Part shown: piece by piece, positions 41,265 to 44,965 of the stretch
Numbering within the stretch: position 1 is the first letter of the stretch
How the letters are laid out: each line of letters begins with the position of its first letter
Source: Acidobacteriota bacterium
Lineage (GTDB): Bacteria > Acidobacteriota > Thermoanaerobaculia > Gp7-AA8
Assembly: GCA_021781455.1 (NCBI GenBank)
Contig: JAJXWV010000033.1
Location: forward strand, 201,169-265,168
Length of the DNA stretch: 64,000 bases
Direction: 5' to 3'
Notes under the pieces: generated by a model
The model's database searches: none
What the model saw: only the letters and a program-made list of their open reading frames with translations
Told to the model about the DNA's origin: nothing
Made by a program: the position numbers and the translations under genes

Positions 41265-41430
41265 CCCGCCCGGACCGCAGTTCGCAGACCGCAGACCGCA
41301 GATCGCGCGTCAGACACGCGCAGCATCCACTGCGGCGCGATCCACGCCAGAAAATCCCGAGGAACCCGAGGAACCAGGAACCCGAGGAACCAGGAACCCG
41401 GTCTGCGGTCTGTCGTCTGCGGTCTCGCGA
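41265..41430. repeat. Inverted arrays of gaccgcag and cccgaggaacc-type 8-11 nt units
   Basis: cggaccgcagttcgcagaccgcagaccgcagatcgcg ... cccgaggaacccgaggaaccaggaacccgaggaacc ... ggtctgcggtctgtcgtctgcggtctcg. Confidence 0.8.
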
Positions 41431-42761
41431 TCACCGGAACACCTCGATCACCCGCTTCAGACCGGCGATCAGCGCATCGACTTCTTCACGAGTGTTGTAC
41501 ATGCCGAACGACGCCCGGCTCGTCGCCGGAACGTTGAAGCGCATCATGAGCGGTTGCGCGCAGTGATGCCCGGTGCGGATGGCCACACCTTCCTGGTCGA
41601 GGATCGTGCCGATGTCGTGCGGATGAACGCCTTCCAGCGTGAAGGAGATGACACTGGCCTTCTCGGCCGCCGTGCCGATGATGCGCAATCCGGGAATCTC
41701 CACGAGCCTCCCGGTCGCGTAGACGAGCAGGTCGTGCTCGTGAGCGCCGATTTTCTCGATTCCGGCCGTGCTCACGTAGTCGAGTGCCGCAGCCAGGCCG
41801 AGCACCCCGGAGATATTCGGCGTTCCCGCTTCGAACTTGTACGGCAGCGCGTTGTAGGTGGTCTTCTCGAAGGTGACCGACAGGATCATGTCGCCGCCGC
41901 CCTGCCAGGGAGGCATCGCGTCGAGGATCGGCTGCTTGCCGTAGAGGACGCCGATGCCGGTCGGCCCGTAGACCTTGTGTCCTGAGAATGCGTAGAAATC
42001 GCAGTCGAGCTCCTGCACGTCGATGGGCAGATGAGGCACTCCCTGGGCGCCGTCGATCAGGATCAGCGATCCGTTGGCGTGGGCCAGGGCGATCATCTGC
42101 CGGATCGGGTTGATCGTGCCGAGGGCGTTGGAGGCGTGGCCGACGGCCACGATCTTCGTGCGCGGAGTGAGGAGGTTGGCGAATTGATCGAGCATGACCT
42201 CGCCAGCGTCGTTGACCGGCGCGATGCGCAGCTGGGCGTGCTTCTCGCCGCACAGCAGCTGCCACGGGACGATGTTCGAGTGATGCTCGATGGCCGTGAT
42301 CAGGACCTCGTCGCCCTCACCCACATTGGCGCGGCCCCAGGCCTGGGAGACGAGGTTGATCGACTCGGTCGTGCCGCGCGTGAAGACGATCTCCTTCTCG
42401 TCGCGGGCATTGAGGAAGCGCTTCACGGTCGTGCGCGCCGCCTCGTACTCGCTGGTGGCGACTTCGCTCAGGTAGTGCACGCCGCGATGAACGTTCGAGT
42501 TTTCTTCGCTGTAGTAGCGAACCAGGCGGTCGATCACCGCCTGCGGTTTCTGGGTGGTGGCTGCGTTGTCGAGATAGACGAGCTTCCGCCCGTGGACGCT
42601 GCGCGCCAGGATCGGGAAGTCGCGGCGGATGCTCTCGACGTCGTAGTCGGACCGCAGACCGCGGACCGCAGACCGCAGCGGCTGTGCTTCCGAGAGGCGG
42701 TCGGTGGTCGGCGATCGGTGCGCTGTGGTCTGCGGTCCGCGGTCTGCGGTCCGGGTGGTCA
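41431..42761 (-). CDS. sufS: Cysteine desulfurase SufS (PLP-dependent), with a repeat-encoded N-terminal extension
   Basis: Group II desulfurase motifs (YLDNAATTQKP, SGHKVYGPTGIGVLYG, HHCAQPL). The only in-frame ATG/GTG/TTG is at 42761, giving an ATGA overlap with the sufD stop. The first roughly 40 codons are the gaccgcag octamer hairpin. Confidence 0.85.
42648..42760. repeat. Inverted arrays of GACCGCAG octamers lying inside the annotated 5' coding region of sufS
   Basis: gaccgcagaccgcggaccgcagaccgcag ... ctgtggtctgcggtccgcggtctgcggtcc. Confidence 0.85.
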
Positions 42762-44120
42762 TCGCTGTTCTCCCCCGCGGGGCATCTGCCGGGACATGGC
42801 CCGGCGGATCTGTTCGCGCACTGGTTCGAGCTTCATCCGGTCGACGATCTCGCTGGCGAACGCGTAGACCAGCATGTCCCGCGCCTCGCTTTCGCCGATG
42901 CCGCGCGAGCGCAGGTAGAAGAGCGGTTCCTCTTCGAGCTGCCCGATGGTCGAGCCGTGATTGCACTTCACGTCGTCGTTGGAGATCTCGAGCGTCGGTT
43001 TCGAATCGACGATCGCAGTATCGGAAAGGAGAAGGTTCTTGTTGTTCTGCCGCGACACGGTCTTCTGTGCGTCGGGGCGGACGATGATCCTGCCGTCGAA
43101 GATGCCGCGGGAGTTGCCGTCGAGAACGCCCTTGTAGAGCTCGATACTGTCGCAGTGCGGCACCACGTGATCGATCAGGGTGTGGTTGTCCACGTGCTGC
43201 GTTCCCGCCGTGATGAACAGGCCGTCGAGCACGAGCGAGGCTCCCTCGCCGGCCAGTGAGACCGACACGTCATTGCGCACCACGCCTCCGCCGATCGAGA
43301 TCGACCGGGAGGTGACGCTGCTGGCCCGCTCCTGGTGGACGTGCACGGTCCCGATGTGGAAAGCCTCCAGCGATTCGGATTCGAGCTTGTAGTGGTCGAC
43401 GACCGCACCGTCACCGGCCACGATCTCGGTCACGGCGTTGGTGAAGTACGAGCCGGAGCCCGCGTACGTCTCGACGACGGCGATCTGCGCGCCGCGGCCG
43501 GCGATCACGAGATTGCGCGGATACGACTGAAAGCCCGCCGATCCGACGAAGAGCAGGTGGACGAAGCCCTCCACCACGCCGGTCACCTCGACCACCGCTC
43601 CGTCCTCGGCGTTTGCGGTGTTCAGTGCCGTCATGGCGTGATTCGCATAATCGGCATAGCGGGCGAAGTGCTGTTCCAGAATCTCGAGCGGCGCTTCGCG
43701 CAGCGTCCAGATGCGGAGACCACGGTTCCTCGGTTCCTCGGGTTCCTCGGTTTCTGGGACGGCTCTGCCCGAGGAACCCCGAGGAACCCGAGGAACCGAG
43801 GAACCCGCGAACGTGCTCGCTTCGGGCGCATAGACGCCGTTCACGAATACGAGCTCGGCCAGCGCGCCGCGGAGAGTCCCCCCCGTGTAGGACAGGCTTT
43901 CCAGCCTGTCCTCCTCAGGACAGGCTGGAAAGCCTGTCCTACACGGAGCTTCGCGGAACGCGCCGGCCTCGAAGCGACTCTGCAGCGGCTGCAGGTTCGT
44001 GTACTGCCATTCCTCGAGGTGCGTGGTCGGCCAGCCCAGTTGCGCGAAGCGCTGCCCGGCCTGCTCGCGAATGCGCTGCAGGACCTCCGTGGCTGGCGCC
44101 GAGTTCACCGCTGCTTTCAT
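42759..44120 (-). CDS. sufD: Fe-S cluster assembly protein SufD, carrying two in-frame repeat-derived insertions
   Basis: C-terminal SufD beta-helix (LLLSDTAIVDSKPTLEISNDDVKCNHGSTIGQLEEEPLFYLRSRGI). N-terminal domain contains PRVPRGSSGRAVPETEEPEEPRNRG (ggaaccgagg repeats) and TGFPACPEEDRLESLSYT (ggacaggc..gcctgtcc module). Confidence 0.8.
   Translation of the reverse strand: MKAAVNSAPATEVLQRIREQAGQRFAQLGWPTTHLEEWQYTNLQPLQSRFEAGAFREAPCRTGFPACPEEDRLESLSYTGGTLRGALAELVFVNGVYAPEASTFAGSSVPRVPRGSSGRAVPETEEPEEPRNRGLRIWTLREAPLEILEQHFARYADYANHAMTALNTANAEDGAVVEVTGVVEGFVHLLFVGSAGFQSYPRNLVIAGRGAQIAVVETYAGSGSYFTNAVTEIVAGDGAVVDHYKLESESLEAFHIGTVHVHQERASSVTSRSISIGGGVVRNDVSVSLAGEGASLVLDGLFITAGTQHVDNHTLIDHVVPHCDSIELYKGVLDGNSRGIFDGRIIVRPDAQKTVSRQNNKNLLLSDTAIVDSKPTLEISNDDVKCNHGSTIGQLEEEPLFYLRSRGIGESEARDMLVYAFASEIVDRMKLEPVREQIRRAMSRQMPRGGEQR
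43721..43945. repeat. Two repeat modules embedded in-frame in sufD: a ttcctcgg/ccgaggaac hairpin (43721-43810) and a duplicated ggacaggctggaaagcctgtcc palindrome (43885-43945)
   Basis: Direct reading. The frame is maintained through both. Confidence 0.85.
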
Positions 44121-44878
44121 CACGCGCCTGCGGCGACCTCCTGCTCGATCCACTCGTAGCCCTTCTGCTCGAGCTCTTCGGCCAGCTCCTTGCCACCGGA
44201 CTTCACGATCCTCCCGTTCGCCAGCACGTGCACGAAATCGGGAATGAGGTAGCTGAGCAGCCGCTGGTAATGCGTGATGACGAGGACGGAGTGCTTCTCG
44301 CTGCGCAGGGCGTTGACGCCGCCTGCCACGATGCGCAGGGCGTCGATGTCGAGTCCAGAGTCAGTCTCGTCGAGGATGGCCAGCTTCGGGTCGAGCACGG
44401 CCATCTGGAAGATCTCGTTGCGCTTCTTCTCGCCGCCCGAGAACCCCTCGTTCACGGCTCGGTTCATGAAGGCTTCGTCGAGATCGACCACCTTCATCTT
44501 CTGACGCGCCAGCTGCAGGAACTCGAGCGCGTCGAGCTCTTCCTCTCCGCGGTGCTTGCGCACGGAGTTCAGCGCGGCCTTGAGGAAATAGATGTTGTTC
44601 ACGCCCGGGATCTCGACAGGGTACTGCATGGCCAGGAACACGCCTTCGCGCGCCCGCTCCTCGACCGGCATCGAGAGAAGGTCCTTCCCCTCGTACGTAA
44701 CCGATCCCGCGGTGACGGAGTAGCGCGGCCGTCCCGCCAGGACGTTGGCCAGCGTCGATTTTCCCGAGCCGTTCGGCCCCATGATGGCGTGCACTTCACC
44801 CGTGCCGACGCTGAGGGTCAGCCCGTGAAGGATTTCTTTGCCGTCGATGCCTGCGTGGAGGTTCTTGATTTCGAGCAT
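44120..44878 (-). CDS. sufC: Fe-S cluster assembly ATPase SufC
   Basis: Walker A GPNGSGKST, ABC signature FSGGEKKR, Walker B LAILDETDSGLD. Start chosen at MLEIKNL. Shares one nt between its stop and the sufD start. Confidence 0.9.
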   Translation of the reverse strand: MLEIKNLHAGIDGKEILHGLTLSVGTGEVHAIMGPNGSGKSTLANVLAGRPRYSVTAGSVTYEGKDLLSMPVEERAREGVFLAMQYPVEIPGVNNIYFLKAALNSVRKHRGEEELDALEFLQLARQKMKVVDLDEAFMNRAVNEGFSGGEKKRNEIFQMAVLDPKLAILDETDSGLDIDALRIVAGGVNALRSEKHSVLVITHYQRLLSYLIPDFVHVLANGRIVKSGGKELAEELEQKGYEWIEQEVAAGA

Positions 44879-44880
44879 TG

Positions 44881-44965
44881 ATCTGAAGTGCTGAGTACTG
44901 AGTGCTGAGTACTGAGTGTCCGACTTGCCCACTCAGTACTCAGCACTCAGCACTCAGTACTGCCT
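44881..44965. repeat. Inverted arrays of CTGAGTA/CTGAGTG heptamers between sufB and sufC
   Basis: The track ORF for sufC reads through this as MGKSDTQYSALSTQHF. Confidence 0.85.

Follow-up and report, generated by a model that had tools for sequence, protein, structure and literature searches.

Palindromic repeats that lie in frame within functional genes are established in the case of the Rickettsia palindromic elements (RPEs; Ogata et al. 2000, as cited in PMC3733652), and the GTAG and CGTC families of repetitive extragenic palindromes (REPs) also have intragenic members, whose dimers encode 20–30 residues, although the same paper cautions that those at N-terminal positions may be untranslated (Di Nocera et al. 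2013, PMC3733652). Here we describe three palindromic insertions within the suf operon of a Thermoanaerobaculia (Acidobacteriota) genome rich in palindromic repeats that are normally intergenic. Two of them (Insertions A and B) lie in sufD, and the third one (the sufS 5' hairpin) occupies the first codons of sufS, just after a start codon that overlaps the sufD stop. The window, by which we mean the whole 64-kb stretch of DNA that was analysed (G+C content 64.7%), carries on its minus strand the operon rrf2-sufB-sufC-sufD-sufS-sufU-sufT, which spans 39.8–47.2 kb and in which each gene matches an NCBIfam model (Table 1).

The insertions resemble RPEs, as these are summarised in PMC3733652, in being palindromic repeats placed in frame within functional housekeeping genes and adding peptide segments at fold-compatible positions, here according to alignment and a predicted model; as the phylum differs, the likeness is claimed for behaviour only. 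In that account the host of RPEs is a reduced intracellular bacterium, whereas here it is a free-living soil Acidobacteriota; our elements are shorter (64–106 nt), two of the three have arms made of 7–9 nt tandem units that are not part of that description of RPEs, and protein-level expression has been shown for RPEs, while translation of the insertions described here is predicted from sequence comparison. Insertion A agrees with the GTAG REPs in that its two units, which repeat the same 26-nt palindrome and carry GTAG at the 5' end, are inverted and belong to a dispersed family (Di Nocera et al. 2013, PMC3733652), but other copies in the window are tagged GTGG or GTGT, and the gene affected is sufD, whereas that paper stresses DNA replication and repair genes. 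Heptanucleotide simple sequence repeats, described as an abundant category, and the TAACTGA repeat of Beggiatoaceae (PMC4679880; Mrazek 2007 cited there) share with the class of our other two insertions the tandem arrangement, a dominant 7-nt period and a frequent position just upstream of start codons; however, as presented in that source they consist of one specific heptamer, or of a few, repeated in a single direction, while here the arrays form inverted pairs that fold into long perfect hairpins and use 53 different units across relatives. Finally, the sufS start overlaps the sufD stop, and a Shine-Dalgarno sequence lies within sufD; this arrangement, conserved across the clade, has the form of ATGA translational coupling, from which the locus differs in that the putatively coupled start is followed at once by a very stable hairpin belonging to the coding sequence of sufS. 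The cyanobacterial short tandemly repeated repetitive (STRR) sequences are likewise arrays with a 7-nt period, often upstream of start codons, in the form of direct arrays of few heptamers. In the open-access literature we found no description of inverted heptamer arrays forming hairpins with concerted turnover of their arms, nor any account of hairpins of this kind that keep the reading frame after a coupled start.

Results

The sufD gene begins at an ATG that overlaps the sufC stop by one base (TGATG), in agreement with the alignment of its orthologs, which begin MKAAV, and its stop codon (42761–42759) overlaps the sufS ATG. An initial annotation of this DNA had proposed that sufD contains two repeat-derived in-frame segments, and both were found where it had placed them, as a palindrome with 30-nt arms and a hairpin with 27-nt arms. 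Insertion A is a doublet of 26-nt REP units (GTAGGACAGGCTTTCCAGCCTGTCCT), which fall within the 20–40 nt of the imperfect palindromes known as REPs and each have a stem of 9–10 bp and a loop of 4–6 nt, and encodes in frame the segment PCRTGFPACPEEDRLESLSYTG (SufD residues 59–80); its RNA folds with a minimum free energy (MFE) of -70 kcal/mol (z = -12.4). The corresponding REP family has six copies in the window, against 0.07 expected, and four of the six lie outside sufD. Both units in sufD carry the GTAG tag, which alternates with the two other tags among the remaining copies, some of them with compensatory variants in the stem. The REPIN concept, which covers such REP doublets, is reportedly that of Bertels and Rainey. 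Insertion B is of a different kind, with arms made of short tandem units; it encodes in frame GSSVPRVPRGSSGRAVPETEEPEEPRNR (residues ~106–133) and also folds at -70 kcal/mol (z = -7.8).

The closest sequences in public genomes and metagenomes all come from soil metagenome-assembled genomes of Thermoanaerobaculia or other Acidobacteriota, the best SufD identity being 66% in the scan of genome contigs and 64% in that of metagenome contigs, and a protein search with SufD gave one copy 100% identical and relatives at 95% (aligned identity) and 85%. The identical SufD is found in GCA_027388875.1 and other assemblies. The set of related loci (L001–L169) was examined with flanks of 10 kb, and its counts include the duplicates L164 and L165, from the organism of the window, and the duplicate pairs L006/L084 and L043/L142. 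The closest relative (protein P0002, locus L161), whose SufD is the one with 95% aligned identity and whose sufD is 94.1% identical as DNA, has an exact gap of 25 residues or 75 nt at the site of Insertion B, and the gap is present in all the other orthologs aligned. The element of site A is kept in P0002/L161, occurs as a single REP in L166 and P0005, and is absent from L162 and P0004, while P0003 and P0004 have neither insertion. The alignment, a check that the initial annotation had proposed, delimits both segments, reveals their uneven presence among relatives and shows them to be real, lineage-specific insertions within the coding sequence.

In the ortholog alignment, both insertions fall in variable loops of the SufD N-terminal domain. 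An AlphaFold2 (AF2) model built on an alignment of 120 sequences (mean predicted local distance difference test, pLDDT, 89.1; predicted template modelling score, pTM, 0.89), which replaced an unusable run on 11 sequences (pLDDT 45), has only two internal stretches of low confidence, ~61–80 and 101–133; both are modelled as coil and correspond to the two insertions. Furthermore, stems of at least 14 bp are present in 19 of 163 sufD genes from the related loci, always at 9–23% of the gene length, and in none of the coding bodies of 112 sufB, 141 sufC and 136 sufU genes. The N-terminal loops of SufD are, according to this, a recurrent and tolerated landing site for hairpins. Like the hairpin in sufS, the two insertions seem to be read into protein as flexible loops, and their predicted tryptic peptides are VPRGSSGR, AVPETEEPEEPR, TGFPACPEEDR and LESLSYTGGTLR.

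The start of sufS had been assigned to an ATG at 42761 overlapping the sufD stop; the overlap is indeed there (ATGA, 42762–42759), although the ATG occupies 42762–42760 and the position given was one base off. That this is the only canonical start was correctly recognised, as no other in-frame ATG, GTG or TTG exists in the window between the ATGA and the conserved YDVESIRRDFPIL, and the same is true of the octamer hairpin proposed for the first ~40 codons, which covers codons 4–39. The hairpin begins 9 nt past the ATG and has an MFE of -79.8 kcal/mol (z = -9.5). A putative Shine-Dalgarno sequence (GGGGGAGAA) precedes the ATG, and the region that contains it, GGGGAGA(A/G)CAGCGATGA, is kept in L001, L161, L162, L166 and L167. 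The homology of SufS to PDB and NCBIfam entries starts at residue 35–44, so that the hairpin lies within an N-terminal extension. For the three hairpins in coding sequence and for the one between sufB and sufC, the predicted mRNA structures are far more stable than those of shuffled sequences (z from -7.8 to -12.4), none of 200 shuffles folding as well.

The reading frame of this extension was followed across the related loci. A start codon of the NTGA type overlapping the sufD stop is present in 153 of 162 of them, and 151 of those 153 starts lead in frame, with no intervening stop, into the conserved sufS motif, the baseline distance from start to motif being 14–16 codons. The segment is enlarged to 75 nt or more in 39 loci, and 37 of these enlarged segments are in frame with the overlapping start, the exceptions being L069 and L161. 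About 29 of the enlarged tails hold stems of at least 13 bp, which come from at least eight unrelated hairpin families. [quoted passage not shown] Within one family the tail lengths vary (for instance 144, 132, 129, 123 and 114 nt), all being multiples of three despite the 7–8 nt units. In contrast, spacers of at least 50 nt in the same operons, used as a control, have unbiased lengths (mod-3 counts of 27:18:21 for sufB-sufC and 11:5:11 for sufS-sufU). Even if only eight independent events are counted, the chance that all are in frame is ~1.5e-4. Hairpins at the same position and in frame are found in L001, L162 (with the unit GACCGCC), L166 and L167. Because the real start precedes the hairpin, whose length is constrained by the reading frame, ribosomes that initiate at the ATGA almost certainly read through it, and the predicted tryptic peptides of the SufS extension are TADRGPQTTAHR and SPTTDR.

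Two classes of element are present in these genes: the GTAG-tagged REP doublet (Insertion A) and the tandem-unit hairpins (Insertion B and the sufS 5' hairpin), in which a unit of 7–9 nt, repeated a few times in tandem, makes up one arm, and an array complementary to it makes up the other. The proposal that they belong to dispersed repeat families was borne out, since the window contains ~28 hairpins whose arms reach 16 nt or more, compared with none in a shuffled copy; they include one family of GTAG-tagged REPs. Inspection of the TRF and folding output gave ~18 tandem-unit hairpins in the window. The related loci, 1.38 Mb in all, contain 289 long hairpins, of which 78 are periodic in their arms (61 with period 7 and 14 with period 8), with 53 distinct canonical units distributed over 52 of 168 loci; in this class the period is fixed and the unit sequence is free. 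The unit arrays of Insertion B occur elsewhere in the window only at 39907–40130 and 41356–41400, and GAGGAACC arrays are found at three sites of the window, all of them in the suf operon, and are absent from L161. The arrays on either side of sufS share one unit, which in the window is GACCGCAG and in L161 is GATCGCAG.

The comparison with relatives also indicates how these elements change. The REP doublets of the window and L161 differ by four substitutions, which form two compensatory pairs (GTAG/CTAC to GTGG/CCAC, and GGACAGGCT/AGCCTGTCC to GGACGGGCT/AGCCCGTCC), and by an in-frame deletion of 3 nt, and all these changes alter amino acids; in the rest of sufD the substitutions between both sequences are distributed 13:7:56 by codon position. 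The sufS hairpin is built on the 8-mer GACCGC(A/G)G in the window and on the 7-mer GACCGCC in L162, the unit being altered in both arms, while the outer flanks are the same in L001, L162, L166 and L167. The two arms of tandem-unit hairpins thus change their unit in concert across relatives, and palindromy appears to be kept at the level of the nucleic acid rather than of the protein.

Contrary to what the initial annotation had stated, not every junction of the operon carries a hairpin: the rrf2-sufB spacer is an unstructured stretch of 24 nt, and sufC and sufD overlap by one base. Neither did its proposal of a translated hairpin upstream of sufC hold. The SufC model (TIGR01978) starts at residue 20 of the open reading frame (ORF) listed from a GTG at 44932, inside the sufB-sufC hairpin; this places the sufC start at the ATG at 44878 and leaves the hairpin intergenic, and the spacers of the relatives are free of frame constraint. 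The position of this hairpin is kept in L161, L162 and L167, with units GAGTACT/GAGTGCT in the window and GAGTCCT in L167, and the four long sufB-sufC spacers inspected (those of the window and of these three loci) all contain hairpins. Spacers of at least 50 nt are found between sufB and sufC in 66 of 131 loci and between sufS and sufU in 27 of 138. As the two genes sufB and sufC have a one-base overlap in another 42 of the 131, this junction toggles between coupled and separated states across the clade. A scan for intrinsic terminators found the hairpins to be devoid of T-runs and gave a single convincing terminator, the stem that follows the large hairpin downstream of sufT, and no Rfam family matched at gathering threshold across the window.

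Table 1. Genes of the suf operon, in-frame insertions and intergenic hairpins in the window
Feature	Position	Strand	Arms or composition	Remarks
Insertion A	43883..43946		Perfect 30-nt arms, 43883-43912 / 43917-43946; two identical GTAG-tagged REP units GTAGGACAGGCTTTCCAGCCTGTCCT, inverted, 4 nt apart	REPIN-like doublet in sufD
Insertion B	43724..43805		27-nt arms, 100% complementary, 43724-43750 / 43779-43805; GGTTCCTCG / CCGAGGAACC units	Tandem-unit hairpin in sufD
sufS 5' hairpin	42648..42753		33-nt arms, 97% complementary, 42648-42680 / 42721-42753; GACCGC(A/G)G units; 40-nt loop	sufS codons 4-39 (RTADRGPQTTAHRSPTTDRLSEAQPLRSAVRGLRSD)
Shine-Dalgarno-like sequence	42768..42776	minus	GGGGGAGAA	7 nt upstream of sufS ATG, within sufD 3' end; read from sequence
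sufB-sufC tandem-unit hairpin	44887..44961		AGTGCTGAGTACTG units	Ends 8 nt before sufC ATG; untranslated; z = -9.7
sufS-sufU composite	41273..41425		Outer arms of GACCGCAG units (same unit as sufS 5' hairpin); inside, GAGGAACC half-array and small hairpin	
sufU-sufT nested palindrome	40691..40803		GTGTCATCCTGAGCCGGCG termini	MITE-like; 15 such termini in window
Hairpin downstream of sufT	39907..40131		Arms of ~8 and 15 GGTTCCTCG/ACCGAGGA units	
Terminator-like stem	39872-39899			After the large hairpin downstream of sufT
Tandem-unit hairpin upstream of rrf2	47035..47121		GGTCACCG units	
rrf2	46904-46428	minus		NCBIfam match
sufB	46403-44970	minus		NCBIfam match
sufC	44120..44878	minus		Start ATG 44878; TIGR01978 SufC model
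sufD	42759..44120	minus		453 aa; TIGR01981 SufD, 271.8 bits (cutoff 222); PDB SufD homology
sufS	41431..42762	minus		443 aa; ATG 42762-42760; TIGR01979 SufS, 610 bits
sufU	41253-40810	minus		NCBIfam match
sufT	40681-40133	minus		NCBIfam match

Discussion

These data are probably best explained by assuming that palindromic repeats are tolerated in frame at permissive sites and translated as linkers. According to this, abundant palindromic repeats would insert at or near gene boundaries, and two kinds of permissive site would be available in this operon, namely the two loops of the SufD N-terminal domain and the unstructured N-terminal tail of SufS just past its ATGA-coupled start. At an overlapping stop/start or in a disordered loop only in-frame and stop-free copies would survive selection, which could be the reason why in-frame copies persist. 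Read-through would then yield proteins with low-complexity linkers of 22, 28 and roughly 29 residues, with a neutral or nearly neutral effect on the protein. Slippage within the arrays and copying from arm to arm, a form of concerted evolution, may maintain palindromy, and new copies would arise mostly by short-range copying within the operon, for example by template switching or gene conversion.

Several observations weigh against this explanation. No target-site duplication was found at Insertion B, where ~18 nt of flanking sequence are replaced or have diverged, and the location of both sufD insertions in loops comes from a predicted rather than a solved structure. About one quarter of the lineages have a hairpin at the same position of sufS, with co-varying arms, and a selected RNA structure would give the same pattern. 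Finally, in the closest relative (L161) the frame set by the ATGA start does not match that of sufS, and the 3' arm of the hairpin is missing. Since sufB and enolase are each split into two ORFs in the same contig (contig_69876 of ERZ25039489), the frame of this sufS is probably a sequencing error, the assembly looks like a long-read one with indel errors, and we have set L161 aside as a counter-example to the translation of the sufS extension.

The main alternative, which in our opinion is unlikely, is that the sufS 5' hairpin, and perhaps the intercistronic ones too, is a selected RNA device, in which a stem of about -80 kcal/mol at +10 would block independent 30S initiation, so that sufS would be translated only by ribosomes terminating on sufD at the ATGA; long perfect stems might also determine the relative amounts of SufBCD, SufS and SufU, as targets of RNase III or as barriers to exonucleases. 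A very stable stem just past a start codon should hinder independent initiation, and long perfect stems are plausible substrates of RNase III. The position of the hairpin 9 nt after the ATG, together with the conserved Shine-Dalgarno sequence and ATGA, would fit such a device, as would the recurrence of sufS-tail stems from so many families, their persistence in relatives of ~73–85% SufD identity despite the turnover of the units, and the uneven occupancy of the sufB-sufC and sufS-sufU junctions. However, around three quarters of the relatives have no hairpin at the sufS start, both the families and the positions of the stems vary (the stem starts between +5 and +34), the 3' arm has apparently been lost in the closest relative, and the Rfam search was negative. 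Moreover, the intergenic copies keep equally perfect stems everywhere, which indicates that the upkeep of the stem is a property of the element and not of the sufS site. More doubtful still is a broader version of this idea, that the hairpins with period 7 or 8 are a distinct, self-renewing palindromic class of Thermoanaerobaculia, spread by short-range template switching and with arms homogenised in concert; as RNA gates co-opted at the junctions of the operon, the first codons of sufS among them, they would enforce translational coupling or else tune the SufBCD:SufS:SufU ratio by offering sites for RNase III or barriers to exonucleases.

Gene callers set the start of sufS downstream of the hairpin in L161 and L167, in-frame CTG codons are present at codons 29 and 36, and many N-terminal REPs may be extragenic according to Di Nocera et al. 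(PMC3733652), so that sufS could initiate at a non-canonical codon past the hairpin, the latter being untranslated and the ATGA frame incidental. This is very improbable given the bias of the enlarged segments towards the ATGA frame, which true spacers lack, and the conservation of the Shine-Dalgarno sequence and ATGA; in addition, no ATG, GTG or TTG separates the ATGA from the conserved domain, and nothing resembling a Shine-Dalgarno sequence precedes the CTG codons. Arrays of 7 or 8 nt in the first codons of a gene, whose unit length is not a multiple of three, might also suggest a phase-variation (contingency) switch in which the slippage of one unit turns SufS off or on, and the out-of-frame sufS of L161 could be taken as an example of it, were its assembly not error-prone. 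With only 3–4 units per arm, an array length that is constant in three near-identical assemblies and 37 of 39 lineages in frame, we give such a switch hardly any weight, and shutting off a core Fe-S assembly enzyme would presumably be a poor adaptive strategy. As for an assembly or sequencing artefact, which the initial annotation had considered for the sufD segments, the DNA comes from a metagenome-assembled genome, and assembly is difficult across palindromes and tandem repeats. Nevertheless, the same organism is represented by two independent assemblies from different pipelines, a k141 short-read contig and GCA_027388875.1; against the window they show 99.84% and 99.96% identity, lack indels and have all their mismatches outside the hairpins, and homologous insertions are present in other species. 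As the hairpins are identical in independent assemblies, an artefact is practically excluded.

The tolerance of apparently translated repeats by an operon presumed to be essential was presented as notable in the initial annotation; in-frame REPs and RPEs (PMC3733652) make it less unprecedented than was implied. Tolerated in-frame insertion at sufD and sufS would extend the idea of selfish DNA inside genes, of which RPEs and REPs of the intragenic kind are the known cases, both to a phylum of free-living soil bacteria and to genes at the core of Fe-S assembly. Furthermore, the sufS tail offers an unusually clean comparative case for the translation of hairpins, since hairpins with 7- or 8-nt units are in frame with the ATGA in dozens of lineages and not so in true spacers. 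For gene annotation, this means that N-terminal hairpins beside an overlapping stop/start should not be trimmed automatically. The data also point to a class of hairpins that combines a fixed period, a free unit sequence and concerted arms.

Other features of the locus

The top NCBIfam match of SufS was the family 2A encapsulin cargo cysteine desulfurase (NF041166), with 701 bits against a cutoff of 800. We rejected a reading of the SufS N-terminus as encapsulin cargo, as the model is aligned only over the catalytic half (model positions 214–622) and the gene lies within the suf operon; no encapsulin gene lies nearby.

Some tandem-unit arrays flank nested palindromes. At 7076–7472, 12913–13362, 26817–27320 and 51020–51370, arrays of AGCGGGT, AATTGAA, AATGTTG and AGTGCTGAGTCCTG pair with complementary arrays across 300–450 nt, and these long-range pairs enclose other palindromic elements, in two cases a long ATTTAGCGGCGGCCGTCAGGCCGCCG hairpin; this arrangement suggests nested insertion into hairpin loops. 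Termini of the CCGTCA(C/T)(C/T)CTGAGCCGGCG type, which are MITE-like inverted repeats, occur at 15 sites of the window (for example 16118, 22405, 37274, 40693, 49111, 59939 and 60089), and the same type is the one that encodes the VILSREDGEGSP segment in the sufS tail of relatives, where it supplies an internal in-frame ATG. Directly downstream of the D-Ala-D-Ala ligase gene, at 37076–37148, there are two tandem copies of a 37-nt unit (TCCCGTCACTCTGACTCTGAGCCCGCGAAGCCGCGGT) related to GTCACTCTGAGCC termini.

The junctions of the operon differ in other ways among relatives. In L162 a nested MITE-like palindrome of 172 nt (3540–3711), called as an ORF of 59 aa, separates rrf2 and sufB, at the junction that has 24 nt in the window, and downstream of sufT L161 has a GTAGGACAGGC REPIN where the window has a GAGGAACC array. 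Between L164 and the window (99.84% identity), 11 of the 12 mismatches fall in a 28-nt patch of sufB (45975–46002), a pattern that either recombination or a difference in local assembly might explain. Finally, two small ORFs with Pro/Gly-rich N-termini followed by hydrophobic segments lie at 38976–39847, between an ABC_tran_2 gene and the suf terminator, and their counterparts in relatives are annotated as MamF_MmsF-like.

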